Positions 243 to 32,794 of a DNA stretch of 37,872 nt are shown one piece after another (position 1 is the stretch's first letter; each line of letters starts with the position of its first letter). Origin of the DNA: a bacterium (lineage in GTDB: Bacteria > Zixibacteria > MSB-5A5 > GN15 > FEB-12); assembly GCA_043826475.1 (NCBI GenBank), contig JBDRQG010000045.1, forward strand, positions 1 to 37,872, written 5' to 3'. The notes beneath the pieces are model-generated. The model was not told where the DNA came from. It saw only the letters and a program-made list of their open reading frames with translations, and searched no databases. Made by a program: the position numbers and the translations under genes.

Positions 243-2468
243 TCAACAAGGAGATGGTGCTGAGCTGCCTTTGAAGATGTAATTGACGAGGTAAATCAGA
301 TCATTTACAAGAATGTTTCCATCTAGAGGGACAGCGCAATCCCCCTCATCCAAACAACCCGGAGCAGAACCACCCTTAAATAAATAATCAACCAGATAAA
401 CCAGATCAGCGACATCAACCGGACCACCGGGACCGATTATACCATCAGCATTCCCTCGGTTCATACAGCAACCGCTGGAATGAAGAACACCCGGTAATGA
501 TTTGATTTGATAATTAATCATAGATCCGTAATAAGTAGGCGTATAAGAGCTGTATCCATCTGTGATGATAAAGTTCGTATCATTAAGAGGAACACTGCTG
601 CTGACAGTAAAAAATACTTTTAACAGCGATCCATAACCATTGGAAAGTTCCGGCTGGCTTCCATCATTAGAACTGATCAGGGCATAGGTTTTGCGTTTTA
701 CCCAGATATCGGAATGAATAGCTTTTACACTATCAAAATAATCCGTCCGGCATCCTACGGTTGAAACCGAGTCGAGATAAAGATTAAAAGGTCCACCATA
801 TTCTATCGGAATCGTAATATACCGAGTAGGACAAGTATTATAAGCAGAAATTGTAACACAAACTTTTGATCCTGCAGAACAGAATGATGTATCACCAATG
901 AGGGTATCCCCGATCGAAGCTATATAATTATGTTTGGTATTTTGTAAGATATCTCCGGCAGCATCAATTTCAAGCTTCACATCGAATAATCCCCGTTCAT
1001 TAAATGTATGCGATGGAGATTGTATAAAGGCAGAATCACCGTCACCAAAATCCCATGTCCAGGAATCGGGGATTAGCTTTGAAGTGGCAGTGAAATTAAT
1101 ATCAATCGGCGTCCAACCAAAACAGGTGTCTGCTTCAAATTCTACTCCCTGCATAGCCAGAGCTTTTAAACAGAAATTGGCGGTGTTATTAAAGTAATAT
1201 AAATCATGCCACTCACCGTTTTGAAAATAAAAACTCTCGCCTGGATTTGAAGCCGAGACTACCTCAGATCGGTACTTAGCTCCCAGCAGCACAGGAACAT
1301 CAGAGGTACGATCGTAAGGCTGACCACCATGCGAAAGTGATAGATAGACATAAAAGGTATCATCACTATCAACATTAAACTGATTATCCAGATCAATGGT
1401 ATGAAACCCAGAATGTTCTATAGTTCCTGACATTGATGATAGCGGTTCAGAGAGATCACCATTACTGAATTTATCATAAATAATAACATTATAATTTACA
1501 TTTTCTGCTGCAGTAAAAAAACTGACGGCTTGTATCTTTTGTCCACCTTTCCCGATAAAGGTATTAAATGCTTCGCTTACATCGGTTTTAGTATCACGCC
1601 AACCATGGTAGTCATGATAATAGACGTAATCATAAGGCATTGGCCCCACACCCTGAAAAGAAATTGCTCCCATCTCGGGATGCTGACCGCAGTGTTTGTC
1701 ATAGTATGAGATCCAGAAATATCCTTGATATCCCCAGCCTGTCCCCCAGCTGTTTTTAACCAGCCAGGCTCCATTTAACGGGGCTTGTGTATCCCGGTTA
1801 TCATCCCAACCGATAATAGCCACCGCATGGTTGGGATCATTGTAATCTGATGGTGGTTGATAATGGTTATAATATCCATCCAAAAATGATCCACTGGAAT
1901 ATAAACAGGTTCCAATGACACCATTTGACATTATTTTTTCTTTGATAGTATTAATATTACTCAAATTCGATCCGGCTACATACCACTCTATATCTTTAGC
2001 ATAGTAATGATGATAACTTTCCAGATTTCTTTCCGGTGGATCATCAAATGATTGGCCATCGATTTCACGCACTGCTCCTTCACCTCGTGAGAGATAGGCT
2101 GCTGTAACCAGATAGTCTCCTCCCTCATGGACAACCAGTCCGCTTCCGGTCGGTGGTGAGGCATCATCATTGTTGTTTTCATTAAACCCGTTCCACCAAT
2201 CCAGATGATACTCAGCCAAAGCCGGCTCTCCCTCTTCACCGGCAGCAGCCCAGGTTCCGGTCATCAGCATATTCCCTTCCATGGCAGCCATAGCGCCATG
2301 TGTCCAGCAGGTTCCTCCCTGCTGAGATTTTACCGTAGTGACGTAGTTCACTCCGCCAACATTTCTTAGATCAAAAGAACTTGGGAGTTGAGCTTTAGCA
2401 GTACTGACATTTAAAAAAAAGGCTAATAAACATAAAAAAACAATACGATATAGCTTTAGATTAATCAT
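243..2468 (-). CDS. Secreted papain-like (C1 family) cysteine peptidase with a C-terminal PKD + cohesin-like + dockerin-like cassette
   Basis: Signal peptide [26 protein letters not shown]. Papain-type catalytic motifs: [10 protein letters not shown] (Cys), [11 protein letters not shown] (His), [10 protein letters not shown] (Asn-Ser-Trp). PKD motif [10 protein letters not shown]...HTF. The tail carries [17 protein letters not shown] and [23 protein letters not shown] lies upstream of the ATG at 2468. Confidence 0.85.
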
Positions 2469-7198: not shown

Positions 7199-7750
7199 TT
7201 AATAACCAGCTGTGAAAGTTATGACAATGTTAACTGAATCAATGTGGATATTGGTTGTATCAGAAATATTCGAAAAGGCGAAAAATTTCATCTCGCCAGC
7301 TTCAAGCAAATCCTTAATCTTATCAACATTTCTAACATATTCTAGTGATTGGCCGTAGCTAATAAACTGTTGTCCGCCTGATTTTAGCGGTAAAGATTCC
7401 AATACAAGGGTAGCATTTTGGGCAACCTCGCTTCTCGTTGATAAACCGCTCAGGGTAGAACCAGCGCCATCCAAATAGACATCGTATTCCTGATCAGTTG
7501 AAGTATTGTTTGTTCCCCAAACCTCAAGACCAATCATATTAATATCTTTGATATTATCAACATGGTCTTCCCAGGTTCCGTCATCACTCATATCAATTGA
7601 TCCATAATAAAAATCATCATACCAGACCAGGGTATCATTTTCGGACAACTGGTAGGTTAGAATCCAGGTACCACTAATAGTGGCGCATCCAACAATAAGG
7701 AGGATAGCGATGCTGCCGAATAAACCGATTTTATTCAATAGTTTTTTCAT
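7199..7750 (-). CDS. Lipoprotein of unknown function
   Basis: Signal peptide with lipobox MKKLLNKIGLFGSIAILLIVG|C. I recognise no family motif. Confidence 0.6.
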   Translation of the reverse strand: MKKLLNKIGLFGSIAILLIVGCATISGTWILTYQLSENDTLVWYDDFYYGSIDMSDDGTWEDHVDNIKDINMIGLEVWGTNNTSTDQEYDVYLDGAGSTLSGLSTRSEVAQNATLVLESLPLKSGGQQFISYGQSLEYVRNVDKIKDLLEAGEMKFFAFSNISDTTNIHIDSVNIVITFTAGY

Positions 7751-7761
7751 GAAGTACCTCC

Positions 7762-8310
7762 TTATATACCAGGATAAAAGTTAATGCCACCGGTGACAGC
7801 AGCAGATTTTCTAGATCCACCACCCTCGGTAGAAACCACAATGGTTCTGCCGCGGAAATCAAGACCTACTTTTGGCGTCACCCCTATCTCAATCCCAAAT
7901 CCAACTGACCATCCCAAATTGGTATTTTCTACACCAGACTGGTCATGTTTGAATTTGTAGGAACCAATCCCCAGAAGGCCATATGGTTTAATCCCTGCTC
8001 CTCCAAATCCACTACCCAGAATAGCATCGATTCCATAAGCATTTAATTTTGCCCCTTCCAGATCGGATTCCACCAAATCTTCAAGTTCGGGATCACCGAA
8101 TTTTATAAAGTACAGATTTGGTTCAATAGCCAAAGCAGGTATCAGCCCTAACTTGGCTTTAAAACCAAAGACTGTTCCCTGTTTTTGATCCTGCTGGACA
8201 ATGGGGAATTCCAAGCCGCCTGAAACGCCTACTCCCCATTTGACACTCCCGGCCTGTATTGCAGGGACAATCAAAAGGATCAGGATAACCCATATGAGAG
8301 TCTTTTTCAC
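7762..8310 (-). CDS. Small outer-membrane beta-barrel protein (OmpX/OmpW-size, about 8 strands)
   Basis: Start re-set to GTG at 8308-8310, 5 nt after GGAGG (8316-8320), giving signal peptide VKKTLIWVILILLIVPAIQA. Alternating Gly/aromatic beta-strand pattern (GVGVSGGLEF, GFKAKLGL, YGIDAILG, WSVGFGIEIG, GLDFRG). The ORF-track start at 8376 adds 22 residues unlike a signal peptide. Confidence 0.6.
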   Translation of the reverse strand: MKKTLIWVILILLIVPAIQAGSVKWGVGVSGGLEFPIVQQDQKQGTVFGFKAKLGLIPALAIEPNLYFIKFGDPELEDLVESDLEGAKLNAYGIDAILGSGFGGAGIKPYGLLGIGSYKFKHDQSGVENTNLGWSVGFGIEIGVTPKVGLDFRGRTIVVSTEGGGSRKSAAVTGGINFYPGI

Positions 8311-8511
8311 GCAATCCTCCAATTTATAAGAGATTACCATTAAATATGTTACTATACCATTCGATGTCAGGTTCATTACTTATTTTAAAATGACTACCCA
8401 CATTATCTTATATAATATAAAGACCATCTGGAGGCAATATTTAAATTTTTTCACGATTTATAAATGCTTGAAAATAAATCGTACTTTTTATAAAAACAGG
8501 CTAAAAAATAC

Positions 8512-11782: not shown

Positions 11783-14092
11783 CTAATCACACCCCACTAA
11801 CGGGTCATCCCCGCCTTTGAAAAGATAATTCACCATATAAACGAGATCGGCGACATTGATATCACAGGTATGATCAACATCCCCTACAAACTCAGGATAG
11901 ATTGAAGTTCCCCCTTTGAAAATGTAATTCACCATATAAACCAGATCTGCAATATTCACATCGTGGTCATGGTTGACATCACCCAGCATCCATGTCCAGA
12001 AATCAGGGATATTAGTTGATTGGGTTGTTAGACCATCTTTATCAAATGCTGTTACTTTCCACCAGTAATGAGTACCAAAAAGGAAGGAATCAATTGGAGT
12101 ATATGAAAAGAATAATATTGAATCTATTGTATTAACATAGGTAAAATTGGAATCTAAAGCAATCCTTAGCTTATATCTGACTGTATCAAAAGGATCGGGA
12201 TCATAGGATTGACTCCACATAAAATTAGTAAGCATATCAAACACTGGCATATTGCTTGTATCTGGGGGGAACTGTGCCTGAAATGCTGCTGGAGGTTCCG
12301 GGGTTTCATTTACAAAGAATGCCGCTGAGAAAATATCTGTCCATTCGGAATATTCATATCCGTCAAAAGCCCTTACATTCCAGAAGTACCTCTTATTCTC
12401 TTCAAGCGGTATTGTCACCTGCCATCCGGTTGAATCTGTTGCTTCCGGGATATTATAACCTTCGATAGGGTAAGGCTCACCATAAGTTGTATCAACCACA
12501 CAGAAGAAATCATAGGTCAGGGGATCACCCTCGGCATCAGTGGAATTATCAATCCAGAGTGTCGGTGTAGCTGTTGTAAACAGATCGTTAATAGGTTGTA
12601 TTGGTAAAGGAACTGTGGGGATAGAGTTCATACGAAATGATGTATTATACCAGTCAGACCAGGCTGTGCCATTATGAACCCTTAACCGAAGATAATAGGT
12701 ATTACCATCCATCAGAGCGGAACCTGAATAAGTTATGAATGTATCCGAAGAAACAAAAGGTGCCGGGTTCCACATTTCTGAATATGCCCAGTCATCATCA
12801 GTTCCAACTGCAATTTCGAATTGAGTTTGAATATTTAATCCTGTTGGATCTAAAATATTCCAATTAATCTCCGGATTGTGATTTATTAAATGTAATGAAT
12901 GATTTATATTGTCAACCAATAGAATATTTATAATTGGTACAACAGCTGTATCAAAATAAACATAAGTAAAACCAGTTTGCCACCCCGAACCGCTACCACC
13001 TTGTGAGACGCCATAAGAATTAGCAGAATAATATAGTCCTAATACTTTTCTATCAATATTTTCTATCCAATATCCGGAAGATCTATAAATCATTCTGCCA
13101 TCCCAGGCATTTATATCATTTGTCCAGGATAATACTGGATTTTGATTAATCGTCCATGACTGACCATTATCTACACTTAGTGCTAAATATAGCTCAGTAG
13201 AATCACCACCATTAAGCCTGTGGTTCGGTGATTCAGTCACTAATCCCAATAGGGAATCATTCATATTCACAATTTCCAGATGCCATATTTTCATGGTGTC
13301 ATCTGAAGAAGGGAATTGACAGGTATCAAATGCTAAAATGCTGTAATCAACCGGAGAAATTACATATCTGACTACTCTTGAGCTATCGAGATATGTTTGA
13401 CCAGCGGCAAAAGGCTCAACTATGTAGAGGGAATATAATGAATCATTGCTTATAATTAATGATGGTGATATAAATGCCGAAATATTTTCCTGTTGCAATA
13501 TACTGTCAGATAATATTTTAATTGGAGGATCCCAATCAATTCCATTATTTGTATGGGTGATATAAATAGCATTAGAATCCTTACCTGCAACATTCCAGGA
13601 GACTCTAAAGACTTGAAGCAACTTATTGTTATAGTCATACAAGATATCAGGATCTGATAAATGCAAAGCTTTGAAATCCTTTAAATTATATAGTGGATTA
13701 TATAAAGTATCTACACCATTCGTAAATTCTTCCCAGTCAATTCCATTATTGCTGACGGCAATATGCGGATTCTCATCTGATTCAGAAATACATATAGGTG
13801 TGTATGCCATCCAATATTTAAATCCCCATAAGCCATCTGAAATATATAATACTGAAGGATGAAGAGCATGTGACGCACCAAGACATTGCAAACTATCTTC
13901 TAAATCCCAGCCTGAATAAAATGATGGGAATATTTGATAATCTGAGGCATGCCCTGCATGAGCATATTGAAGATTAAAACCAAGAGACTTAGTATCTTTA
14001 ATAATTGAATTTGAAGTTTGTGAATAAACAAATTCATATGGTATCACCAAAATACATAAAAATGAGAATAATACTTTTAAATACTTTTTCAT
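11783..14092 (-). CDS. Secreted multidomain protein: beta-propeller (glycosidase/BNR-like) + three FN3-like modules + dockerin-like tail
   Basis: Signal peptide MKKYLKVLFSFLCILVIPYEFVYS. Propeller-type motifs (ENPHIAVSNNGIDW, THTNNGIDW, Asp-box SVDNGQSW). Three modules of about 100 aa each end in a Y[YF]W-type strand (NTYYLRLRVHNGTAWSDW, KRYFWNVRAFDGYEYSEW, THYWWKVTAFDKDG). Tail: GDVNHDHDVNIADLVYMVNYIFKGG...GDVDHTCDINVADLVYMVNYLFKGGDDPLVGCD. Confidence 0.7.
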   Translation of the reverse strand: MKKYLKVLFSFLCILVIPYEFVYSQTSNSIIKDTKSLGFNLQYAHAGHASDYQIFPSFYSGWDLEDSLQCLGASHALHPSVLYISDGLWGFKYWMAYTPICISESDENPHIAVSNNGIDWEEFTNGVDTLYNPLYNLKDFKALHLSDPDILYDYNNKLLQVFRVSWNVAGKDSNAIYITHTNNGIDWDPPIKILSDSILQQENISAFISPSLIISNDSLYSLYIVEPFAAGQTYLDSSRVVRYVISPVDYSILAFDTCQFPSSDDTMKIWHLEIVNMNDSLLGLVTESPNHRLNGGDSTELYLALSVDNGQSWTINQNPVLSWTNDINAWDGRMIYRSSGYWIENIDRKVLGLYYSANSYGVSQGGSGSGWQTGFTYVYFDTAVVPIINILLVDNINHSLHLINHNPEINWNILDPTGLNIQTQFEIAVGTDDDWAYSEMWNPAPFVSSDTFITYSGSALMDGNTYYLRLRVHNGTAWSDWYNTSFRMNSIPTVPLPIQPINDLFTTATPTLWIDNSTDAEGDPLTYDFFCVVDTTYGEPYPIEGYNIPEATDSTGWQVTIPLEENKRYFWNVRAFDGYEYSEWTDIFSAAFFVNETPEPPAAFQAQFPPDTSNMPVFDMLTNFMWSQSYDPDPFDTVRYKLRIALDSNFTYVNTIDSILFFSYTPIDSFLFGTHYWWKVTAFDKDGLTTQSTNIPDFWTWMLGDVNHDHDVNIADLVYMVNYIFKGGTSIYPEFVGDVDHTCDINVADLVYMVNYLFKGGDDPLVGCD

Positions 14093-14197
14093 AGATCTAA
14101 CCGCTGCAAGTATTTTAATAATCTAATATAAAAGACTGATTTGTCAATGAAAGTATTTTGTATTAACTTTAAAATAACTTACCCTGTAATAACAAAC

Positions 14198-14239
14198 TCA
14201 CTCGCACCCCACTAACGGATCAGGTCCGCCTTTGAAAAG
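14198..14239 (-). pseudogene. Vestigial 3' end of a dockerin-like tail (LFKGGPDPLVGCE*), out of frame, 8 nt downstream of the live stop codon
   Basis: The minus strand reads CTT TTC AAA GGC GGA CCT GAT CCG TTA GTG GGG TGC GAG TGA. This is nearly identical to the last 14 codons of the 15536 and 11783 genes. The functional gene ends with TAA at 14248-14250. Confidence 0.75.
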
Positions 14240-14247
14240 GATCTTGT

Positions 14248-15441
14248 TTAACATTCTGGTTGAGGACCTCCCTTGAAGAGGTAGTTGACCATATAAACCA
14301 AGTCAGCAACATTAATACCGTCACCATTACCTGTTACATCAGAAAGATATATGGGATCAGGGGAAGGACCACCCTTGAAAATATAATTAACAAGAAAAAC
14401 TAAGTCTGCAACATTAGGTCCAATTCCATCACCATCAGAATCTCCACAAAACACTTCTTTGGAATCATTAAAACTGAATATACCATGATCTGTTGCCAGA
14501 TAAACTGTATTGTGATCTCCAGCACTGACAATCTCAATATCGTGCGCCCAGTTAGCACTGTAAGAATTCTCAATAGTTGAGTCCCAGGGTTGACCCGCAT
14601 CATGAGTATAAAACAGGGTTAGCATGTGACCAGTACTTACACCACCAGTAGAATACAGATAGTTGGATCTTACGGGATCGACTTCAATACTATACAAATA
14701 GAAGTTGTTCACAAGCTGGGGCATCCATGATAAACCGCCATTGTTGGAGAATTGAATGATTCCCTCCATAGCAACCCATATTTGCTCTGATTGAGAAGGC
14801 CTGATGGCAACATCATAACAGGCATTGTCTCCACCGCCATTGATCGGTATAGAATACCAGTCCTCACCCAGATTAGGGGAAGTAAGCAGAAGCGGCTGAA
14901 AAATTATGTTCTCTCCACCACACCAGATGGAGTGATTATTGTTGGGATCAATCTCGACAAAAGCTGAGGCTCCATCGGCTGCATGGACTGTTGTCCAGGT
15001 GTAGCCACCGTCTACAGATCGAGCAATACCTACCCCGGCTGCAAAAATTGTGTCGGGCTGATAATCAGCCATGTCGATCTCATTTATTATTGATACATGA
15101 AACCCACTATCCGATGGAAGCCATGTTGCGCCAGCGTCGCTAGTGCGCCAGATAGCATGATCTCCAAATCTTAGTCCAATGACCATATTATAATTATCAA
15201 TAATCAATAATGCTGAAACCGCCTGCCCCTGCATTCCTACCGCTGTCCAGGCAGAAGGAGGATCCCCTTGAAGCTTATGCCAAACGCCGTCGACTGTTGC
15301 TGCATACATATGATCTCCGTTGACTTTGATTTCATATGCCTTTATATCATTAAGACCATGATTGAGCCACTGACCGAATGAAATCGAAACCAACGTAATT
15401 AAGATCATTAAAACCATCGACAATATAGATATGTACTTCAT
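14248..15441 (-). CDS. Secreted BNR/Asp-box beta-propeller protein (Ycf48/sialidase-like fold) with dockerin-like tail
   Basis: Start set to ATG at 15439-15441, 7 nt after GGAGG (15449-15453), giving signal peptide MKYISILSMVLMILITLVSISFG. Repeated Asp-boxes: SDAGATW, SVDGGYTW, NLGEDW, SNNGGLSW, HDAGQPW. Tail: [26 protein letters not shown]...GNGDGINVADLVYMVNYLFKGGPQPEC. Confidence 0.75.
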   Translation of the reverse strand: MKYISILSMVLMILITLVSISFGQWLNHGLNDIKAYEIKVNGDHMYAATVDGVWHKLQGDPPSAWTAVGMQGQAVSALLIIDNYNMVIGLRFGDHAIWRTSDAGATWLPSDSGFHVSIINEIDMADYQPDTIFAAGVGIARSVDGGYTWTTVHAADGASAFVEIDPNNNHSIWCGGENIIFQPLLLTSPNLGEDWYSIPINGGGDNACYDVAIRPSQSEQIWVAMEGIIQFSNNGGLSWMPQLVNNFYLYSIEVDPVRSNYLYSTGGVSTGHMLTLFYTHDAGQPWDSTIENSYSANWAHDIEIVSAGDHNTVYLATDHGIFSFNDSKEVFCGDSDGDGIGPNVADLVFLVNYIFKGGPSPDPIYLSDVTGNGDGINVADLVYMVNYLFKGGPQPEC

Positions 15442-15535
15442 ATTTAAACCTCCACGAGATATTATGGAGATAGACATTATTATTTATGTGCAACCCTGTT
15501 GTATATATCTATCAATAATAAAAGATATTATTTCA

Positions 15536-16981
15536 TCACTCGCACCCTATCAGTGGATCAGGTCCGCCTTTGAAGAGATAATTCACCATATAAACCAGAT
15601 CAGCGACATTGATATCACAGGTATGATCGACATCTCCGATATATTCAGGGAAGATTGTTGCCCCCCCTTTAAAAATATAATTCACCATATAAACCAGATC
15701 GGCGACATTAATATCATCATCCAAGTTGACATCACCGGGGAGAAGCAGAGCCGCATCTTTGATAACTTTCATGTCCACGTTTGAAGTGTACCAGCCAATA
15801 GAATCACCCTGATTTATGTTTTTACCCCTCCCGGAAATAAGGAGATGCAACTGCCAATAATTTGCCTTTTCTTCGATAAGCGGATGGACCGTATATATCC
15901 ATTGATCCAGCCAGCCCGATCCGGTCAATAATGGTTCATTAAGATTATACCAGTTTTCGAAATCATAGCTGTATCCAAACCAGCAGGTATCCTTGTCCAG
16001 CATCGGGGTTGCAAATCCGACATACAGGCTGTCTGATAATTTGGAAATTTGGGTATGGCGATGATAATTATTACCGGGCAGGGTCCAGTTTAAAATTCCG
16101 ATAGAATAATGATTATCATCGAGGCTACTCCCTTCTAAAATTGTATTTCCCAACGTATTTACCGTATGAAAAGCAGAATCAAGGGTTGATCCCTCCCATA
16201 CGGCCAGGGCGGTTCTGTTGGCTGAAGTATCCTCGTTTACGATTATTATGTACTTATCGTTGTCAATAAATATCGAAGGCGCCATTAATAGCATACTGCC
16301 ATGTTCAGGATAAATATCCGATCCGTTATTAACATAACCATCTATTAATAGAGTGGTATCATCCCAATTTGAACCATTAAATTTGTGGGCATAAATGGAG
16401 TGGATTGAGAGGCTTGATCTTTCAAAACCAGAAGTGTACACAACATTCCGGGTTATTCTGGTTATCATTACCGGGGAGTTGTCCTTGTCAAGCAGCAGAA
16501 CAGGATCTGACATATATGTGCCATAAGCACTTGTAGCCCAGGAATAACTGTGGCCTTCAGGATCATCAAAAAAAGAGGCCGAACATAAGGGATTATGTAT
16601 CTCAGCACCTGAAGTATCAACCAACTCATGCCAGACATTGAGGTCATATAAATTTTCCGTGAAATTCAGGCTGTCATCCATAACATATATACAGGGGTCC
16701 TCACAAAGACTGCTTCCATCAACTAAAGGAGTACCCACAATCCACATGGATGGGTTGTTCATATATCCGCCAGGTATAAAAAGAGGGAAGGTGTGCATTA
16801 CCTGAAAGCTGTCATCAGGCTCGGATATACAGGAATTTGGCACATGGAGGCGGATAAAGGCATTACCGATTGTATCAATCTGGAATAATGGCTGTACCGA
16901 CGGCATAATTGTCGTTTCAGCATTAATACCGGCAGACACTAACAACAAGAGTATTGCTCTAATCAGTACATTCATAACCAT
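15536..16981 (-). CDS. Secreted protein of unknown catalytic type (possibly propeller-like) with dockerin-like tail
   Basis: Signal peptide MVMNVLIRAILLLLVSAGINA. Tail: GDVNLDDDINVADLVYMVNYIFKGG...GDVDHTCDINVADLVYMVNYLFKGGPDPLIGCE, nearly identical to the tail of the 11783 gene. Confidence 0.65.
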   Translation of the reverse strand: MVMNVLIRAILLLLVSAGINAETTIMPSVQPLFQIDTIGNAFIRLHVPNSCISEPDDSFQVMHTFPLFIPGGYMNNPSMWIVGTPLVDGSSLCEDPCIYVMDDSLNFTENLYDLNVWHELVDTSGAEIHNPLCSASFFDDPEGHSYSWATSAYGTYMSDPVLLLDKDNSPVMITRITRNVVYTSGFERSSLSIHSIYAHKFNGSNWDDTTLLIDGYVNNGSDIYPEHGSMLLMAPSIFIDNDKYIIIVNEDTSANRTALAVWEGSTLDSAFHTVNTLGNTILEGSSLDDNHYSIGILNWTLPGNNYHRHTQISKLSDSLYVGFATPMLDKDTCWFGYSYDFENWYNLNEPLLTGSGWLDQWIYTVHPLIEEKANYWQLHLLISGRGKNINQGDSIGWYTSNVDMKVIKDAALLLPGDVNLDDDINVADLVYMVNYIFKGGATIFPEYIGDVDHTCDINVADLVYMVNYLFKGGPDPLIGCE

Positions 16982-22069: not shown

Positions 22070-23812
22070 TTACGGGCTGACTGTAATACTAGTTGAGAGG
22101 CTTACTCCACCTCTGGGATCAGTATCAACAACGGTAATTAAGAATTTACCTGTGTCACTAGGGCCCGGTATCCAGGTAAAGCCGTAAGCTTCTCCAAATT
22201 TATTGGTTTCTTTAGTTCCAGGACCGGGAGTTCCGGTAGCTGGATAATATGCAACTATTGTATGATCGCCAAGTGGATTACTCCAACGATCCTTAATAGT
22301 CACATCAATAAAAGCTCTCTCACCTGTTCTGATATCGGTCGTAGCTATAATATTACACTGTGATTTGTATGCATCACCAGTCAGCAAACTAACAGATTTT
22401 GAATATACTGATCCAATGCTTACTCTATCAACATAACCAATACCATCATCATCACCACCCGGCATTGATTCATCCAATTCTAACTTGGACGAACCAATTT
22501 TTATTTCAGCTACCGAAAATAGGTTGCCACAAAGATATTCAAATGATCCTGATCCAACCGTGAGCTTTGAGGCACTACTTCTAAATGCCGTTCCATTAGC
22601 TACGGGATTTACATTTAGATCCCAACCATATAATAGTATGGCTGCTTCTGAAGTCCCATCCGCCCACATTGCATCAGGGATTTCATAAGAGGAATTAAAT
22701 GTAATAGTATTCAGACCGCCGGTATTAAAGAACATGGTAGAATCTTTAACTGTTCCACCATAAGTTTCAGCATAAATCCAAACATCTCCGTCAGGAGTAG
22801 GATTTGCATTCGAGGCATAACCAGAAATCCAGATTGAATTGGCAACACCCTGAAGATCGCGGGTTCTTTCCAGATGTGAAACCATAGTACCTTCATCGGC
22901 AGTAAAGTAAACAACGGTTGAATCATTTACCGGATTATGGAATGTATCAGAGACGACAGCAATCACCCCAATATATTCACCAACGACACTCCAAAGAGGA
23001 GCATTGCATTCTTCTGCGGCTACAACAATATATTTAGGAGGACCGGCAGATACCATAATCTGGGTTGAGTTAGAAAGAACTGAGTCATTTGCCTGAGCAC
23101 GGATTCTGACTGTACCTGATTTTGTACCGGAATGTAAAACAATAGTTGCCATTCCAAATCCGTCAGTTTCCACTTCCACAGGACCATTACCTAAAGTATC
23201 TAAATGCTCACCACCACCAGGACCTGCAGTTATTAAGACACTGATTGGGGTTCCTTCAGGGACAGTGTTGCCATCTATATCCAAAACAACCGCTCTTTAC
23301 GTAGCTGACTCAATACCACCGGTGCTTTTTACAACCAGATTCATAGAATCAGCAGACATATATATTGAATTAATAATACCGCTGGTGCCAATACCTGGGC
23401 CACCGCCCGAAGTAATTCTAACTTCAGTGCTGGCGTTAGAGGTCGACAATCCGGCAGTTGTGTTTGCTGTAATTGTAACATCACCTTCAATTGAGGGATA
23501 GAATATAGTTGCCGCCAAACCGTTCTCATCGGTCATAACAGTATCATCACTGAAAGATCCTGCAACTGATGGAGAGACAGTAAATCTGACCTCTTTATTG
23601 GCAACAGGTGTTGTGCCGTCAAGCACTTCCGCTTCAACCACAACACTGGAATAAACATCAACTTGTGATGGGGTGGCGGAAACACTAACTGCTATATTTT
23701 CCTCCCCCGATGTAGTACTGGGGCTTTTCGAATCACAACCTGTCAGTAATACAACTGATGAAATTAACAGTATAGCAATACAGTTAAATATCAGTGAATT
23801 TCTGGTCTTCAT
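22070..23812 (-). pseudogene. Ig-like (Big/invasin-type) repeat lipoprotein interrupted by a single in-frame TAA (23297-23299). Alternatively two genes: 23297-23812 and 22070-23284.
   Basis: Start ATG at 23810-23812, 5 nt after AGGAG. Lipobox LISSVVLLTG|C. Repeated Big-like units (TV...D..G.PV...V.F...). The two ORFs share one frame, and the sequence reads ...VVKSTGGIESAT*RAVVLDIDGNTVPEGTPISV across the stop, in the middle of one unit. The downstream ORF has only a TTG start and no SD. Confidence 0.55.
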
Positions 23813-23878
23813 AAACACTCCTATCAACTCTAATTTCTCTTTTTTCATTCTAAAATTTTTATACTTATATTTTTTATG

Positions 23879-23908
23879 AAAAGACCCCAACAGTTAATGC
23901 TTGGGGTC
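23879..23908 (-). terminator. Hairpin between pilQ and the Ig-like lipoprotein gene (weak terminator or attenuator)
   Basis: GACCCCAA (23883-23890) pairs with TTGGGGTC (23901-23908) around a 10-nt loop. On the minus strand TTTC ATAAAAAA follows. Confidence 0.45.
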
Positions 23909-23934: not shown

Positions 23935-25218
23935 TTATTTCCCCATAGCCAGATCTTGTTCGACTATTGAAGGAGTGACAAAAATCACCAGGTCACGAAC
24001 TTCGGAGCGCTTGTTGGTATATTTGAAAAGATGACCTAATAACGGTATATCTTTTAAAATAGGTACGCCAACTTCAGTTTCAACTTCGTCCTCAGTGGTA
24101 AGCCCACCGATAACCGAAGTCTGTCCATTAGCGACAATAACATGAGTCTCAGCATTATTTGTATTTATAATGACACCATTCGGATCAAACTGGTAAGTTG
24201 AACGTTCCGGTATAAGATGCATAAGGATCTGGTTTTCAGCAGTGATATGCGGTGTAACAGTTAATATGGTACCTACTTCTTCAAATTTAATAACCACATT
24301 GCCGGATTCATCAAATTGCTTAACCGGAATCTTCTGACCCATCTGAATCTTAGCTTCTTTATTATCGATGGTTGTGATTTCAGGATGGGCAATAATTTTG
24401 CCTTTACCGCTGTTTACAATAGCTTCTACGATAGCGGTTGCATCCCAGCCATGCTGGAGAGCTGTGATGGAATATCTACCTACTATATCAGCGCTCCGAT
24501 TAGCGTCAACACTACCAGTCTGTTGATAACTTCTTCCGGATTCAGTATTATAGGTTCCGGAGACAGTCCAGTCAATACCCAGTTCTTCAAGATCATTAGT
24601 GTAGATTTCCACAAGCTGAGCTGATATTTTTATCTGCTTGGCCGGCTTGTCTAATTCATCAATATAGGAAATAACTCTATCCATATTGCTGGGGACTTCC
24701 TGAATTATTATGGAGTTAGACCTCGAATCACTGGTAGCTTTACCTCTATCAGTCATCAAAGATTTAACCGCTTCCACAATATCATCAGATGTTGAATTTG
24801 AGATACTAACGATTTGGGTATTAAGCTCAACTAACTGCTGAGTCTCCTGCAAATGCTTATTCTGCTCTTTGACTTCAGTACGATAGTCATCAGATCTTAA
24901 AACTCTGATATAACCATCAGATTCATCAATGACAGTCAAATTATATGTCCGTCCGATAATATCCAGGGCAACGCGCCATTGAATATCACGAAGCTTAATA
25001 GTTACTGTTCCCTGTACATCGGGAGCAACAACGACATTGACATTGCCGTAATCAGCCAGGAAGGTAATGACCGAACGTACTTCCGCAGACTGGAACTGTA
25101 AGTTCTTGATAGGTTGTTCCGGATCATTAGCCTCGTCCGCTGTTGCCGGCAGACCGAATGATACCGCAAAAAGCAGTATAGCCATAAATTTAAAACTTTT
25201 AGGTAATTTCCAAGGCAT
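23935..25218 (-). CDS. pilQ: Type IV pilus secretin PilQ (short form, no AMIN domains)
   Basis: Signal peptide, then an N0/STN-like domain (IKNLQFQSAEVRSVITFLADYGNVNVVV), N1-type domains, and a secretin C-domain (VIGGLTTEDEVETEVGVPILKDIPLLGHLFKYTNKRSEVRDLVIFVTP). Confidence 0.85.
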   Translation of the reverse strand: MPWKLPKSFKFMAILLFAVSFGLPATADEANDPEQPIKNLQFQSAEVRSVITFLADYGNVNVVVAPDVQGTVTIKLRDIQWRVALDIIGRTYNLTVIDESDGYIRVLRSDDYRTEVKEQNKHLQETQQLVELNTQIVSISNSTSDDIVEAVKSLMTDRGKATSDSRSNSIIIQEVPSNMDRVISYIDELDKPAKQIKISAQLVEIYTNDLEELGIDWTVSGTYNTESGRSYQQTGSVDANRSADIVGRYSITALQHGWDATAIVEAIVNSGKGKIIAHPEITTIDNKEAKIQMGQKIPVKQFDESGNVVIKFEEVGTILTVTPHITAENQILMHLIPERSTYQFDPNGVIINTNNAETHVIVANGQTSVIGGLTTEDEVETEVGVPILKDIPLLGHLFKYTNKRSEVRDLVIFVTPSIVEQDLAMGK

Positions 25219-25237
25219 TATCTTATCCTACCTTTCC

Positions 25238-26905: not shown

Positions 26906-26919
26906 TACTACCTGACCTC

Positions 26920-27525
26920 CTAAAGAGCAAGCTCTGAGAGCCGTTCATCTTCTTTGACGAAGTATGTCAAAAGAACAAATTTTGCCGTTAGAGTTTCATG
27001 ATTAGAATCATCATCCTGACTATCATTTTCTGATATGGCCAATTTTTGAGAAACCAGTTCCATATTAGTCAGGTTGGCTATAAAGGGAAAATTAGCCACA
27101 TAACTTACAAATTTCCCGAAATCATGATACGTTCCTGTCATTTCTATCTCAAACGAAGCGATGTTATAAAATTGCTGAGATTCAATCGGGCGCGGGTTAA
27201 GCTTGGTAATCCTGGTACCGGTAATTGAAGAAGCAGTATGCAGCTGTACCAGCAGGGATGGAATCTGTTTCACTTCGGGAAGCAATGCTTCGATTTCATG
27301 GTAACGATCAATCAAATCACTATACTCTAATTTGAGCGCATCAAGCGATTTAGCTTTCATCTCTACATTGCGCAGATTGGTCGTAATGGACTCAAATTCC
27401 TGGCTTTTGTTCGCAATTTGAGAATCATATTTCACATAAAGACGAGTGTACCAGAAATAGCCTACTATAAAGAGGGCCATTACACCCAATAATATCTTTT
27501 GTGTTTTGGGATCTTTCAGGTCCAT
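26920..27525 (-). CDS. pilO: Type IV pilus assembly protein PilO
   Basis: One N-terminal TM helix (ILLGVMALFIVGYFWY), a coiled coil, then a ferredoxin-like core (IPSLLVQLHTASSITGTRITKLNP...FEIEMTGTYHDFGKFVSYVANFPFI). Confidence 0.8.
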   Translation of the reverse strand: MDLKDPKTQKILLGVMALFIVGYFWYTRLYVKYDSQIANKSQEFESITTNLRNVEMKAKSLDALKLEYSDLIDRYHEIEALLPEVKQIPSLLVQLHTASSITGTRITKLNPRPIESQQFYNIASFEIEMTGTYHDFGKFVSYVANFPFIANLTNMELVSQKLAISENDSQDDDSNHETLTAKFVLLTYFVKEDERLSELAL

Positions 27526-27535
27526 AGCAGCATCC

Positions 27536-28243
27536 TCAGTTTAGGCTCTTGTGACTGGTTTTATTATTATCTTCATTATTATTATTAGCCTGAGCTATCA
27601 GATTTTGAAGTTCCTCATCAGATAAATAATGGACATTGCAGGAGAAGACAAAATTGTATGCCTTCTGTTCGCCGAAGACTTTTTCCGAAGAAGTAGTCAG
27701 TTCCACATTATCGAAATAATCTGAGCGCATCATATTTATCATAAAGGAAGCCAAGGCATTCAGGGTAAAGGCATACCCCTCGATTTCAGCCTCATGTACT
27801 CTGGGCTGATTATCAATAACCGGAGGAGCCTGTTGTCCCTTTTCCGTCTCAGCATTTTTAACTGCAGGAGCATCCTTCTCTGAAAGTCTGGCCAGCCAGA
27901 TAAACTCGGGGACATTGCTTGAAATGTTTTCAAGAACTCTGACCCATGCGGTCCGGTGGCTATCCAGTCTTTCGACAGCGCTCATCCTTTCGCCAATCTT
28001 CTGTTTGACATCAATGAGGGCATCAACAAGCCTGATATCATTCTGAAGCATGGCAGCACGCTGTTTGGCTTTACCGATATTTTCATCAAGCTTGCTTATT
28101 TGATGGGCTTGATAGAAGGAAATAAAAGCCAGCATGATAATAATACCTACCACACCGCCGAGAGTATAAAATCCAGCTTTGCCAAAAGACAGATTGACTG
28201 CTTTTTTGTGATATTGCTTGGGAAGTAAATTTATTTCTATCAT
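27536..28243 (-). CDS. pilN: Type IV pilus assembly protein PilN
   Basis: Canonical N-terminus MIEINLLPKQ, a TM helix and a coiled coil. It lies between pilM and pilO. Confidence 0.8.
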   Translation of the reverse strand: MIEINLLPKQYHKKAVNLSFGKAGFYTLGGVVGIIIMLAFISFYQAHQISKLDENIGKAKQRAAMLQNDIRLVDALIDVKQKIGERMSAVERLDSHRTAWVRVLENISSNVPEFIWLARLSEKDAPAVKNAETEKGQQAPPVIDNQPRVHEAEIEGYAFTLNALASFMINMMRSDYFDNVELTTSSEKVFGEQKAYNFVFSCNVHYLSDEELQNLIAQANNNNEDNNKTSHKSLN

Positions 28244-28250
28244 CAGTCTG

Positions 28251-29539: not shown

Positions 29540-29570
29540 TTGCCAAAAAGGAGAAGAAGGAGTAAGTATT

Positions 29571-30421: not shown

Positions 30422-32794
30422 ATGAAAAGAGCTTTCTCTTTGCTTATTTTACCTCTTTTTATAATAACTGCTTTAATGATAACGACTGTATTTGCACAAG
30501 GTACAGTTCCGGGACATGAATGTCTTGTCGATGGCCCGGTTGTTATACAAAAATCAAAAAATCTAATAAAAAGTACTGCCCTCGAATATCTTACATCCCA
30601 GAATGACGAAGATGTAAGTATCTGGGTCTTTTTCACAGATAAAGGGGTCTTTACAAAAGAAGATTTTAACAATAAAGCTGCATCTTTGTCGGTCTCGGAA
30701 AAATCAATGAATAGGCGTTCTAAGGTCAACAAAGACAAGGTTTTATTTGCTGATCTGCCGGTCGTTCAGGATTATATTGATAATGTTATTAATAGTGGCG
30801 GTAAGCTCAGGCGAATCTCTCGATGGTTAAATGCTGCCAGTTTTGATATCCCACTTGCAAATATTGTACAATTAGAATCTCTTCCATTTGTAGCCGAAGT
30901 CAAACCTTTGGCTAAATTTAATCGCCGTGATCAATCAGAAATTACGGACATCAGAATTGATGACATTCAAAATCAGGCCTTATCCCCTGATGTATTAAAT
31001 TATGGTATAGCCCAGGACCAATTAGAACAGATCCATGTCCCACCTCTTCATAATATGGGTTATGATGGTTCAGGGGTAACTCTGGCTGTTTTTGATACAG
31101 GATTCCGCAAATCTCATGAAGCTTTTGCTCAGCATTATGCCGAGGGTAGAGTTTTAGCCGAATGGGATTTTATTTTTAATGACAGCAACACAGCCAATGA
31201 ATCCGAAGATATAAGCACTCAATGGAATCATGGGACCCTTACCTGGTCAACAGCCGGTGGGTTAAAAGATGGTTCGCTGTACGGCCCGGCATATAAAGCA
31301 AATTTTATCTTATGTAAAACCGAGGATGTTCGTTCTGAGACACCGGTTGAAGAGGATAACTGGGTGGCTGCACTGGAATGGGTTGATCCCCTTGGAGCTG
31401 ATGTTATTACTTCGTCACTAACTTACACCGATTGGTATACATATTCCGATTTTGACGGCCAGACAGCAACAATAACACTAGCAGCCAATACCGCCGCAGG
31501 ACTTGGGATTGTCGTTTGTAATTCAATGGGTAACAGCGGTCCAAGTGCTGGAACTTTAGGTCCTCCCTGTGATGGTTACGATATTGTAGCTTGTGCGGCT
31601 ATGGATGCAAGCGGCAACATTGCCAGCTTCTCATCAAGAGGCCCAACTTATGATGGCCGCATGAAACCCGAAGTCGGAGCTCGCGGCGTCAACACTGCAT
31701 GCGCATCATCCAGCGGGGATTATTCTTATACCACTGCCAGCGGAACATCCCTCTCAACACCGTTGGTTGCCGGAGCGGTTTGTTTGCTTATTCAGGCTCA
31801 TCCCAACTATACTCCCCAGATGATTATTCAATCATTAAAAGACTTTGGTGATCATGCTGAGAACCCTGATAATAATTACGGTTGGGGAATTATTAATACT
31901 GAGGAATCTTTTGGATGGGGAGCTAATTTTGATGCTGACATAACTATCGGCGATGCTCCGCAGACGGTACAATTTACCAATACTTCATCTCTGGCTTCTG
32001 ATTCCTATGTCTGGTCATTTGGTGATGGGAGTTCTTCATATGTCGAGAATCCTTCACATTATTATGGAGAATCTGGTGTTTACGATGTATCCCTTAATAT
32101 CGATACCGAGTATGGAATAATATCACGAGTAAAACATGCTTTTGTTATTTTATTAGGTGATACTCTTACATTTACATCTGACTCTGTTTTTGCCGGTGAA
32201 AAAGCTTATATCTCCGTAAATTTAAAAAATTCCCAGCCTATAGATAAAATAACAATTCCCTTTACATATGGGGGATCAGGTTTGATTGATTATGATTCGG
32301 TCACATTCGGCGACAGAACATCATACTTCGATGAAATAAAATTTGTCCATCAGGATTCCTGGGTTAGAAAATACACGATTGAATTATCGATTAATGTTGC
32401 TGGACCAAATCCGCCTCTTGAACCGGGATACGGAGAAGTTATGAGAATTTATTTCTCAACTGATCCTTATGCTCTGGGGGGATCAAATGATTTTGTTGAT
32501 ACAACAAATGCAACTTACAAGTTAGCTTTACGATCAGAATATATGACATATAATCCTCGTTTTTATGATGGTAATATTGTTATGAAGCCGGTAATCAGAG
32601 GCAACGCCGACAATATAGGTTCAATCAATGTTGCCGACCTTGTTTACCTTGTCAATTATCTTTTTAAAGGCGGATCAGCCCCAGTGACAATTCAGTCCGG
32701 TGATGTCAACAGCGATTTGGCTGTGTTAGTTTCAGATTTAACATATTTAGTTGAATACATTTTTAAAGGCGGCCCGCCACCAATAACTCCGTAA
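30422..32794 (+). CDS. Secreted subtilisin-like (S8) serine protease with propeptide and a C-terminal PKD + cohesin-like + dockerin-like cassette
   Basis: Signal peptide MKRAFSLLILPLFIITALMITTVFA. Catalytic triad motifs LAVFDTGF (Asp), WNHGTLTWS (His), SGTSLSTPLVAGA (Ser). PKD motif VWSFGDGSSS...HYY. Tail: [26 protein letters not shown]...GDVNSDLAVLVSDLTYLVEYIFKGGPPPITP. Confidence 0.9.
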   Translation: MKRAFSLLILPLFIITALMITTVFAQGTVPGHECLVDGPVVIQKSKNLIKSTALEYLTSQNDEDVSIWVFFTDKGVFTKEDFNNKAASLSVSEKSMNRRSKVNKDKVLFADLPVVQDYIDNVINSGGKLRRISRWLNAASFDIPLANIVQLESLPFVAEVKPLAKFNRRDQSEITDIRIDDIQNQALSPDVLNYGIAQDQLEQIHVPPLHNMGYDGSGVTLAVFDTGFRKSHEAFAQHYAEGRVLAEWDFIFNDSNTANESEDISTQWNHGTLTWSTAGGLKDGSLYGPAYKANFILCKTEDVRSETPVEEDNWVAALEWVDPLGADVITSSLTYTDWYTYSDFDGQTATITLAANTAAGLGIVVCNSMGNSGPSAGTLGPPCDGYDIVACAAMDASGNIASFSSRGPTYDGRMKPEVGARGVNTACASSSGDYSYTTASGTSLSTPLVAGAVCLLIQAHPNYTPQMIIQSLKDFGDHAENPDNNYGWGIINTEESFGWGANFDADITIGDAPQTVQFTNTSSLASDSYVWSFGDGSSSYVENPSHYYGESGVYDVSLNIDTEYGIISRVKHAFVILLGDTLTFTSDSVFAGEKAYISVNLKNSQPIDKITIPFTYGGSGLIDYDSVTFGDRTSYFDEIKFVHQDSWVRKYTIELSINVAGPNPPLEPGYGEVMRIYFSTDPYALGGSNDFVDTTNATYKLALRSEYMTYNPRFYDGNIVMKPVIRGNADNIGSINVADLVYLVNYLFKGGSAPVTIQSGDVNSDLAVLVSDLTYLVEYIFKGGPPPITP

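Follow-up and report, generated by a model that had tools for sequence, protein, structure and literature searches.

A putative non-cellulosomal cohesin-dockerin assembly built around secreted proteases in a Zixibacteria-like bacterium

The 37,872-nucleotide stretch of DNA analysed here (the window), from a diderm, Zixibacteria-like bacterium, probably encodes a non-cellulosomal cohesin-dockerin assembly, in which two proteases would each act as enzyme and mini-scaffold and free dockerins would be held by T9SS-anchored cohesins. Five proteins in the window share a C-terminal tail that appears to be a genuine dockerin, and both proteases also carry a cohesin-like module, so that the window would hold both halves of a cellulosome-style docking system (Table 1). 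By analogy, the best reading is an assembly of the ordinary non-cellulosomal cohesin-dockerin type, resembling Amy4 of Ruminococcus bromii.

Table 1. Predicted genes of the window that encode the shared tail, with their modules
Feature	Position (strand)	Extent	Composition or evidence
C1 protease	243..2468 (-)	741 aa	signal peptide, Peptidase_C1, Lectin_like, PKD, cohesin-like module, dockerin
Cohesin-fold module, C1 protease	465..941 (-)	aa ~510-668	family HMM E 6e-61
Dockerin, C1 protease	246..464 (-)	aa 669-741	family dockerin HMM 2.7e-26
Secreted 769-aa protein	11783..14092 (-)	769 aa	uncharacterised N-terminal domain, Ig_Rha78A_N-like and further Ig/FN3-like domains, C-terminal dockerin
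Dockerin, 769-aa protein	11786..11986 (-)		Dockerin_1 27.2 bits, 4.4e-6
Secreted beta-propeller-like protein	14248..15441 (-)	397 aa	Sortilin-Vps10/BNR-like repeats, C-terminal dockerin (14251-14448)
Secreted 481-aa protein	15536..16981 (-)	481 aa	uncharacterised N-terminal domain, C-terminal dockerin (15539-15736)
S8 protease	30422..32794 (+)	790 aa	signal peptide, propeptide-like region, Peptidase_S8, PKD, cohesin-like module, dockerin
Cohesin-fold module, S8 protease	32126..32596 (+)	aa ~569-725	AF2 model, Foldseek, hhalign
Dockerin, S8 protease	32597..32791 (+)	aa ~726-790	Dockerin_1 2.4e-4; family dockerin HMM 7e-30

An earlier sequence-only reading had described five open reading frames with a shared tail, and all five exist as described, with tail coordinates that translate to exactly these tails; the frame of the 397-aa protein can be extended to an upstream ATG at 15477. 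Each protein combines a signal-peptide-like N-terminus with a duplicated loop-helix tail of about 70 aa at its C-terminus, and alignment of all five tails shows two loop-plus-helix copies with the core [NV][VI]ADLVY[LM]VNY[LI]FKGG. A six-frame HMM search of the window recovered exactly five tails at E values of 7e-30 to 2e-20, with the next best match at 0.28, which places them far beyond chance. DNA identity among the tails (54-80%) tracks their protein identity, indicating that their likeness reflects selection on the protein and not an assembly artefact or recent duplication. The tail motif occurs widely: in GTDB representative genomes, at least 465 stretches that encode it were confirmed.

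The N-termini of all five proteins resemble Sec-type signal peptides (e.g., MKRAFSLLILPLFIITALMITTVFA|QG), as called by eye and with a crude hydrophobicity rule. Across related loci the tail shows enrichment on proteins with signal-peptide-like N-termini (96/135 vs 156/623) and is strictly C-terminal, 107 of 135 ending no more than 3 residues from the C-terminus. Four of the five window proteins have, as had been read, a Cys within their last three residues (SPC, GCD, PEC, GCE), while the S8 protease tail contains none, and the number of Cys is even in 209 of 262 family tails, with recurrent positional patterns. The even Cys counts and the signal-peptide enrichment look like an extracytoplasmic signature.

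All five tails consist of two tandem loop-helix repeats, as in type I dockerins. Pfam Dockerin_1 (PF00404) matches four of the five isolated tails over nearly the whole model (27.2, 21.7, 21.1 and 16.7 bits), one of them above the curated cutoff of 22.9 bits; the isolated C1 protease tail is not matched by this model. The full-length 769-aa protein also scores above the cutoff (23.9 bits, 4.8e-5). The E values are 3.6e-4 for the dockerin of the 481-aa protein and 8.3e-3 for that of the 397-aa protein, with family dockerin HMM values of 9e-22 and 2e-20, respectively, and Dockerin_1 matches 21 of 33 family members (best 2.2e-12). In the PDB, essentially all matches to a profile built from the five tails are type I dockerins (best 7.5e-6). 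The 769-aa and 481-aa proteins show the canonical EF-hand-like pattern of D/N at loop positions 1, 3, 5, 9 and 12 in each of their two repeats (GDVNHDHDVNIAD, GDVDHTCDINVAD); the loops of the 769-aa protein read D1-N3-D5-N9-D12, with Cys residues in loop 2 and in the C-terminal GCD. In the 397-aa protein and both proteases, the loops contain insertions of 1-5 residues or substitutions; for instance, the C1 protease dockerin has inserted loops and five Cys, and ends in SPC. An AlphaFold2 (AF2) model of the C-terminal part of the S8 protease places dockerin helices at model residues 165-177, 185-188 and 198-210 (block pLDDT 85-97), a three-helix topology according to the secondary structure of the model. 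The five tails appear to be real, if divergent, dockerin modules of a type-I-like kind, in agreement with the dockerin likeness that had been proposed. Across the three dockerin-only tails, both helices have the sequence ADLVY[LM]VNY[IL]FKGG, the sole exception being F in place of Y in the first repeat of the 397-aa protein, and their dockerin specificity surface seems to be uniform.

The cargo of these dockerins comprises C1 and S8 peptidases, a propeller, Ig-like domains and uncharacterised domains, and domain searches bear out the earlier observation that it consists of proteases and propeller proteins as opposed to cellulases. The secreted, papain-family C1 protease (Peptidase_C1 1.3e-18, Lectin_like 9.7e-30, PKD_4 2.4e-9) has a 59% identical orthologue of the same architecture at locus L026, and the secreted, subtilisin-family S8 protease (Peptidase_S8 2e-35, PKD_4 1.9e-11) has a syntenic, 53% identical orthologue in L036. 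The 769-aa protein matches Ig_Rha78A_N (1.5e-13), with no relative of its cargo part found by a PDB sequence search. Matches of the 397-aa protein to Sortilin-Vps10 (6.7e-8) and the F510_1955 family (3.1e-14) are below and far below cutoff, respectively. The N-terminal part of the 481-aa protein has no family match in a Pfam-type search and no PDB relative; this protein has a 71% identical orthologue at a Zixibacteria MAG locus (L001). No glycoside hydrolase (GH) family was detected in the five window proteins, among the listed families of 73 proteins carrying a cohesin-dockerin dyad, or in the 25 commonest of the 52 families of 75 tail-only proteins, and an HMM search of the window found no scaffoldin with tandem cohesins and a CBM. 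A cellulosome proper was rejected, as the window has neither cellulase or plant-cell-wall GH cargo nor such a scaffoldin.

Both proteases contain a previously unannotated module of about 155 aa between the PKD domain and the dockerin, and the two modules are 31% identical (E 2e-23). The AF2 model of S8 protease residues 573-790 has a pLDDT of 93.7 and a pTM of 0.85. When the model was compared with the PDB using Foldseek, the top 50 matches were all cohesins (E 4.6e-10 to 9.4e-6, about 150 aligned columns), with target-normalised TM scores of the S8 module up to 0.82; the fifth-best match is 2xdh (E 9.1e-10), the Archaeoglobus fulgidus cohesin. A search with Pfam Cohesin (PF00963), suggested along with the dockerin idea, matches neither module of the window, even with a limit of E<=10, and only weakly matches 4 of 33 family members (best 1.6e-3), whereas Foldseek and hhalign point to a cohesin in both proteases. 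In particular, hhalign aligns the family profile with the cohesin of a related locus, L080, at 97.2% probability (E 4.4e-11), and the L080 cohesin is itself over the Pfam cutoff (50.7 vs 24.1 bits). The protease module is thus predicted to be a sequence-divergent cohesin with a nine-stranded beta-sandwich (jelly-roll) fold, and a cohesin-like partner for the tails lies within the window itself. The tail had been taken for an address tag of an uncharacterised pathway; that inference is not supported, because the canonical partner occurs in the same window, directly upstream of the dockerin in both proteases, and because cohesin-T9SS fusions occur in relatives. The findings that had been named as refuting the earlier reading did not appear.

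The PKD-cohesin-dockerin cassette forms a conserved family, with 421 cluster representatives at E<=1e-3, hosted chiefly by Zixibacteria-like MAGs. Among the best 150 of the 421 representatives, 141 have the dockerin directly after the cohesin (median HMM-boundary gap -3 residues) and ending at the C-terminus. None of these 150 is a multi-cohesin scaffoldin built from this cohesin family, the maximum being two modules. The cassette is carried mainly by peptidases of at least eight families (C1, C10, S8, C25, M43, M4, M28 and trypsin-like), and PKD is present in 70 of 73 dyad proteins examined. Dyad proteins adjoin dockerin-only proteins in L016, L026 and L067. Public records annotate cassette proteins only as "PKD" or "hypothetical", and a search of a library of papers found none pairing Zixibacteria with dockerin or cohesin; to our knowledge, neither a fixed PKD-cohesin-dockerin cassette on peptidases nor Cys-braced dockerins of this kind have been described before.

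The near-obligate co-occurrence of the two modules argues against a role independent of cohesin, in which the tails would be Ca2+-dependent stabilising or glycan/envelope-binding modules that merely resemble dockerins, and the cohesin-fold module a beta-sandwich spacer or carbohydrate-binding module. Most window tails do score below the Dockerin_1 curated cutoff, and the functions of non-cellulosomal dockerins are reportedly largely uncharacterised, as Peer and colleagues are said to have noted in 2009. We nevertheless consider this role very unlikely, as the fold matches are exclusively cohesins and not CBMs, a sequence-profile link joins the module family to Pfam Cohesin, and the helix faces that recognise cohesin in known dockerins are strongly conserved.

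The same pairing could also mean that the protease cohesin binds or braces its own dockerin, in a self-capped or X-module-like manner, and recruits nothing, with all five dockerins binding nothing but cohesins from other loci (e.g., T9SS-anchored ones). A nearly obligate dyad (141/150) is as expected for co-folding partners. The linker between cohesin and dockerin is about 6 residues or fewer (about 5 in the model, counted from the last strand to loop 1), the pTM of the two-domain model implies that cohesin and dockerin would be packed in a fixed orientation, and the modules could be joined through a conserved cohesin Cys (GCRT) and a CC pair immediately ahead of the dockerin. The canonical dockerin-binding face of a cohesin is the 8-3-6-5 sheet, however, and so short a linker probably makes face-on self-binding sterically doubtful. 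Moreover, the X-modules of known dyads do not have cohesin folds; the position of the protease module fits an X-module-dockerin dyad, but its cohesin fold and homology (Foldseek, hhalign) rule out an Ig-like X-module. The module also occurs without a dockerin, preceding a T9SS C-terminal domain (CTD) in P0147, and related modules form stand-alone cohesins (L080, L021). On balance, we judge a purely intramolecular dyad unlikely.

T9SS sorting domains were found only on cohesin-bearing proteins of related genomes. L080 encodes a signal peptide, two cohesins and a T9SS CTD, L021 a signal peptide, one cohesin and a T9SS CTD, and P0147 is a Peptidase_C10-PKD-cohesin-T9SS CTD protein in which the CTD takes the position of the dockerin; in L059, L076 and L062, dockerins and a CTD lie on the same protein. 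It is plausible that the cohesin proteins with a sorting domain are surface anchors. Por_Secre_tail, FlgD_ig and CHU_C have no match in the window's five proteins, and T9SS cargo status (Por_Secre_tail/TIGR04183-type) was rejected for these as they contain no C-terminal sorting domain of about 75 aa. Neither a cohesin-only anchor nor a T9SS component is encoded in the window.

These arrangements bear on the possibility that the tail is itself an export or sorting tag, with dockerin proteins crossing the outer membrane together with cohesin-CTD carriers via T9SS, or with another machine (secretin/pseudopilin) reading the tail. Like other sorting domains, the tail is strictly C-terminal, a CTD stands in its place in P0147, cohesin-CTD proteins exist in relatives, and domain searches reveal no recognisable outer-membrane export signal on the dockerin proteins themselves. 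The S8 protease also adjoins a pseudopilin-pilMNOPQ cluster, a synteny kept in L036 and L027, but the pil genes are a standard type IV pilus assembly set (PilM, PilN, PilO, secretin). We know of no precedent for piggyback transport through T9SS, and the combination of dockerins with a CTD in L059, L076 and L062 is not predicted if the two are purely alternative tags. Hence, we give a sorting tag little chance.

Under the preferred reading of a protease-centred cohesin-dockerin assembly, Sec would export all five proteins, as their N-termini suggest, and the type-I-like dockerin of each would bind Ca2+, usually braced by disulfides. In the proteases, the cohesin would sit immediately N-terminal to the protein's own dockerin, and binding would most likely occur in trans: the protease cohesins may capture dockerins, which are near-identical and internally symmetric, from the three neighbours, from each other or from further copies of the same protease, yielding protease-centred hetero-oligomers or head-to-tail chains, as for Amy4, where such binding has been shown experimentally. 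Free dockerins would plug into proteins that combine cohesin with a T9SS sorting domain and are encoded elsewhere in the genome, holding the assembly on the cell surface.

In array, ELISA and pull-down experiments, the Amy4 cohesin of R. bromii recognised both the Amy4 dockerin and dockerins of other enzymes, making multimers and mini-complexes possible (PMC4611034). Both window proteases follow the Amy4 pattern, with catalytic module, cohesin and C-terminal dockerin joined in a single secreted chain, and in both cases other secreted proteins of the same organism carry a dockerin only. Amy4 belongs to the amylosome of a Gram-positive bacterium and is a GH13 amylase with a sortase-attached scaffoldin, whereas the present enzymes are peptidases of a diderm; here cohesin and dockerin are directly fused, usually with PKD ahead of the cohesin (70/73), a large conserved family takes the place of one protein, and binding is predicted. 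Non-cellulosomal cohesin and dockerin modules reportedly occur outside cellulolytic organisms, according to what Peer and colleagues are said to have found. These modules are similar in sometimes occurring together in one protein and often on peptidases, but the cohesins described here are unmatched by Pfam Cohesin and unannotated in public records.

A close parallel in a diderm candidate phylum is the cloacimonadotal 'Ca. Stygibacter', with signal-peptide enzymes that end in dockerins, among them S8 and C25 peptidases, and an inferred T9SS-anchored scaffoldin (Williams et al. 2021; PMC8542988). Its cohesin protein uses a T9SS C-terminal domain as anchor, the same logic as in L080 and L021. 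There, a single giant scaffoldin combines CBMs with tandem cohesins that Pfam can detect, and the cargo includes GH18 and GH57 (PMC8542988), whereas here each protease brings a single cohesin of its own and no GH cargo was seen. Adaptor scaffoldins such as R. flavefaciens ScaC likewise combine one cohesin with one dockerin and can both bind and be bound, but they are non-catalytic and have flexible linkers, while the present pair sits on an enzyme with almost no linker. X-module-dockerin dyads (type II/III) are comparable in that the dockerin is directly preceded by a beta-sandwich module, with rigid packing predicted here; they differ in that the present module is a cohesin by fold and homology, and type I entries are the best matches of the dockerin profile. 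Clostridial type I dockerins have a dual binding mode (1ohz/2ccl), with which the two near-identical repeats of the present dockerins are compatible; the S8 module shares only 9-19% sequence identity with clostridial cohesins.

The five tail-bearing genes were recovered as the sequence-only reading had described them, with signal-peptide-like N-termini (called by eye and by a crude rule), and translation of the intervals it had assigned to the tails gives exactly those five tails. Each consists of two repeats, an acidic loop followed by a helix of the form ADLVY[LM]VNY[LI]FKGG, and their alignment (A1) has 22 invariant columns. A family HMM run against the six-frame translation of the window retrieves exactly the five tails (E 7e-30 to 2e-20), the next best match having an E-value of 0.28. 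DNA identity among the tails (54-80%) tracks protein identity, so the motif is maintained by selection at the protein level; recent DNA repeats or gene-conversion tracts were rejected for this reason.

When the isolated tails were scanned with the Pfam Dockerin_1 model, four of the five aligned across nearly all of its 57 positions (27.2, 21.7, 21.1 and 16.7 bits against a cutoff of 22.9). One tail (27.2 bits) is above the cutoff, and the tail of the C1 protease, which contains inserted loops, gave no match when scanned alone. A profile of the five tails searched against the PDB finds essentially type I dockerins only; the best 19 matches are cellulosomal proteins or named dockerins, headed by CelS, which aligns end to end (E 7.5e-6). 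Canonical D1-N/D3-D5-N9-D12 loops are present in both repeats of the 769- and 481-aa proteins, and short loop insertions occur in the tails of the 397-aa protein and the two proteases. In the AlphaFold2 model of the S8 protease the tail helices (165-177, 185-188 and 198-210) follow dockerin topology. Together, these alignments, profile matches, loops and helices place the tails in the type I dockerin family, as divergent members. PDB entries 8x39 and 8x3a, whose 151-aa chain is named 'Serine protease', give two matches to the dockerin profile (E about 1e-5 with A3, a 33-sequence alignment of the cohesin-dockerin family), and this chain may be a solved dockerin of a protease; a literature search on 8x39 brought up unrelated papers only.

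Table. Coordinates of features in the window and in related loci (L-numbers) from GTDB representative genomes and MAGs; P0147 is a representative protein.
Source	Position	Strand	Length (aa)	Description
Window	243-2468	-		C1 protease with PKD, cohesin and dockerin
Window	7199-7750	-	183	Lipoprotein-like ORF (LLIVGCATISG), no Pfam family; adjoins the beta-barrel gene
Window	7762-8376			Outer-membrane beta-barrel protein
Window	11783-14092	-	769	Dockerin-only protein
Window	14248-15441	-	397	Dockerin-only protein
Window	15536-16981	-	481	Dockerin-only protein
Window	22070-23284	-		Big_1/invasin-like ORF
Window	23297-23890	-		Big_1/invasin-like ORF, lipoprotein-like LTGC signal
Window	23935-30089	-		GspH-like pseudopilin, pilM, pilN, pilO, AMIN-domain protein (long K/E/P/T-rich low-complexity region), pilQ secretin; adjoins the S8 protease
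Window	30422-32794	+		S8 protease with PKD, cohesin and dockerin
Window	32856-33953			M29 aminopeptidase
Window	36280-37872	+		C-terminal processing protease of the S41/PDZ type (Peptidase_S41 1.7e-50); ORF continues past the right edge
L004	14337-16865			C1 protease orthologue (61% identity over the catalytic part); dockerin, no PKD-cohesin insert
L027	2606-4336			S8 protease orthologue (47% identity over the catalytic part); dockerin, no PKD-cohesin insert
L080	10832-13282		817	Signal peptide, two cohesins, Big_9, degenerate dockerin-like stretch, T9SS sorting domain
L021	2626-3543		306	Signal peptide, single cohesin-like module and T9SS domain (31 bits with Por_Secre_tail)
L059	325-2904			N-terminal dockerin, internal weak cohesin-like region, second internal dockerin, T9SS sorting domain
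L076	1523-4984			As L059
L062	30-1529			As L059
P0147			722	Peptidase_C10-PKD-cohesin-like module, then T9SS-type C-terminal domain (FlgD_ig/Por_Secre_tail, just below cutoffs) in the dockerin's place

Both proteases also contain, between PKD domain and dockerin, a stretch of about 155 aa that the earlier reading had passed over. These regions share 31% identity (E 2e-23) and have no match in a Pfam scan. A PDB sequence search returned no meaningful match, only a spurious SpoIID (E 0.011) and dockerin matches to the tail part, so searching PDB sequences directly does not reveal the relationship described below. The isolated 156-aa module likewise found no homologue in a word-indexed search, and an exhaustive search of 1.84 billion cluster representatives recovered 421 relatives at E<=1e-3 (212 at E<=1e-10). 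For the C-terminal region of the S8 protease, AlphaFold2 reached a pLDDT of 33 from the single sequence, and a confident model required alignment A3; with it, residues 573-790 were predicted as a beta-sandwich followed by the dockerin (pLDDT 93.7, pTM 0.85). The top 50 Foldseek matches of this model in the PDB are all cohesins (E 4.6e-10 to 9.4e-6; target-normalised TM up to 0.82 over about 150 aligned columns), including clostridial type I cohesins, R. flavefaciens cohesins and the non-cellulosomal A. fulgidus cohesin 2xdh. Pfam Cohesin gives weak matches in four of 33 family members. The family profile aligns by hhalign to a cohesin of the related locus L080 (97.2% probability, E 4.4e-11, 137 columns), which itself scores 50.7 bits against Pfam Cohesin (cutoff 24.1). 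Judged by predicted fold and transitive profile similarity, the protease modules are cohesins. The window contains exactly two (E 3e-62 and 1.5e-52; next best 0.3). Both putative partners thus lie within 38 kb, so that two cohesins can be tested directly against five dockerins.

The order of modules is conserved. Among the 150 best representatives of the 421, 141 have the dockerin directly after the cohesin (median gap between HMM envelopes -3 residues) and as the C-terminal end of the protein (median 1 residue remaining), and 70 of 73 full-length representatives have a PKD domain upstream. Peptidase domains in these 73 span at least eight unrelated families, namely C1 (9), C10 (9), S8 (9), C25 (4), M43 (4), M4 (2), M28 (2) and trypsin-like (2), and no glycoside hydrolase is among the families listed for them. 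Some orthologues of the window proteases have the insert (L026, 59% identical; L036, 53%), and others lack PKD and cohesin and keep the dockerin (L027 and L004), so the PKD-cohesin insert is gained or lost as a unit. Public records, mostly from Candidatus Zixiibacteriota, name these proteins "hypothetical" or "PKD domain-containing protein", and their precomputed Pfam annotation shows PKD, sometimes Dockerin_1 and never Cohesin.

The most likely reading, and one we consider probable, is standard cohesin-dockerin assembly in trans. The proteases would then be cargo and mini-scaffold at once: their cohesins would capture other dockerins or one another's, and their own dockerins would bind additional cohesins, among them T9SS-anchored ones encoded elsewhere in the genome. 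In the three dockerin-only proteins the recognition helices of both repeats are almost the same, which implies a single cohesin specificity and, if clostridial type I dockerins are a guide, possibly a dual binding mode. The R. bromii Amy4 cohesin has been shown experimentally to bind its own dockerin as well as those of other enzymes (PMC4611034). The main rival is that each protease cohesin serves to brace or cap the dockerin of its own chain, without recruiting anything; the very short cohesin-dockerin linker and the confident inter-domain packing of the model (pTM 0.85) would point this way, and we regard it as rather unlikely. A role of the tail independent of cohesins is a lesser rival and seems to us improbable. 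With no glycoside hydrolase cargo, tandem-cohesin scaffoldin or carbohydrate-binding module (CBM), the window system differs from a cellulosome and is not one.

Candidate anchors were found by a permissive search of related loci for cohesin proteins without a terminal dockerin (table); no cohesin/T9SS anchor of this type lies within the window. The T9SS domain of the L080 protein exceeds the FlgD_ig cutoff (38.8 bits) and scores 26.7 bits with Por_Secre_tail against a cutoff of 27. These proteins are plausible cell-surface anchors, and at the position seen in P0147 dockerin and T9SS C-terminal domain (CTD) appear interchangeable. The architecture shared by L059, L076 and L062 is unusual, since dockerins are normally C-terminal. 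For Cloacimonadota, S8 and C25 peptidases that carry dockerins have been inferred together with a scaffoldin anchored through the T9SS (PMC8542988), and this was the only study found in a literature search for cohesin-dockerin systems with a T9SS anchor. Dockerin-tailed proteins have no recognisable outer-membrane secretion signal of their own, and an export-tag role of the dockerin is improbable in our judgement. In its specific form the dockerin would double as an export address: proteins would dock in the periplasm onto cohesin-T9SS CTD proteins, pass through the T9SS and be displayed as pre-assembled complexes, which the rigid protease dyads (cohesin fused to dockerin) would extend into chains. 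This is a long shot; if true, uncultured sediment bacteria would have a piggyback T9SS route and an equivalent of the cellulosome built on proteases.

The tail itself is widespread. When the tail alignment was scanned against GTDB representative genomes, at least 465 stretches were confirmed, and the best 80 loci belong mainly to Zixibacteria, MAGs labelled Ignavibacteriales, Calditrichota and GN15, with a few labelled archaeal (labels are those of the MAG records). In mechanically called ORFs of these 80 loci and the window, 107 of 135 tails end within three residues of the C-terminus. A signal-peptide-like N-terminus is present in 96/135 tail-bearing ORFs against 156/623 other long ORFs. Cargo of the 75 tail-only proteins includes S8, M28, M1, C25 and M14 peptidases, LVIVD, FG-GAP and BNR propellers, beta-helices and BACON domains, and a Pfam-detectable cohesin occurs in two of them. 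Cargo domains of the dockerin-only trio have no PDB sequence relatives, and their Pfam/NCBIfam matches are all sub-threshold. The dockerin variant also occurs at loci (L008, L037, L042, L047, L050 and L068) of MAGs labelled Woesearchaeota, Thermoplasmatota and Micrarchaeota, reflecting either mis-binning or lateral transfer into archaea.

The terminal cysteines reported for four window tails (endings SPC, GCD, PEC and GCE) are present, and the S8 protease tail contains no Cys. More broadly, 115 of the 135 tail-bearing ORFs have a Cys within the last eight residues. Three patterns recur among 262 distinct tails: a CC before repeat 1 with the inter-repeat linker and C-terminus (63), loop 2 with the C-terminus (31, including the 769- and 481-aa proteins), and the N-flank with the C-terminus (29, including the 397-aa protein). 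From these positions we infer disulfide braces joining the tail termini, which would fit an extracytoplasmic location. A lipidation or sorting motif was rejected in favour of disulfides, given that no hydrophobic segment follows, Cys counts are even in 209/262 tails and positional pairs recur.

Both modules belong to known families, the dockerin by sequence and the cohesin by predicted fold and transitive profile similarity, and the window system offers no new principle unless piggyback export proves true. Relative to the literature found, several features are new: standard models miss this cohesin family, its members are almost always fused directly to a dockerin and preceded by PKD, they occur with many families of peptidase in Zixibacteria-like lineages, and the dockerins are putatively Cys-braced; a search pairing Zixibacteria with dockerin or cohesin found no paper. 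Catalogues of cohesins and dockerins outside cellulosomes have existed for years, and to our knowledge what these modules assemble is almost never known. The family points to a peptidase-PKD-cohesin-dockerin design that recurs in Zixibacteria-like and related uncultured lineages, presumed degraders of detrital protein. Should the predicted binding hold, these organisms would build surface-tethered multi-protease complexes, which would be relevant to models of sediment protein turnover, and new orthogonal, disulfide-braced pairs would become available for protein engineering. The family, with its 421 cluster representatives, is an annotation gap, and an HMM built from A3 would at once improve cohesin censuses in metagenomes.

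The rest of the window holds housekeeping genes, a pseudopilin-pilMNOPQ cluster and an outer-membrane beta-barrel protein, the latter two indicating a diderm organism. Scanning the window for Rfam families and tRNAs gave no match. A promoter/terminator scan of the three-gene cluster gave 32 against 23.8 +/- 5.5 in shuffles, which is not clearly above the shuffled level. The two Big_1/invasin-like ORFs lie in one frame with a single in-frame TAA between them (...GGIESAT*RAVVLDIDG...), and could be explained by a pseudogene, an error in sequencing or a genuinely split gene. With the M29 aminopeptidase and the S41 protease the window is peptidase-rich, and the synteny M29 peptidase-HAD ... S8 protease ... 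pilMNOPQ is kept in L036 (PilM 82% identical) and partly in L027.
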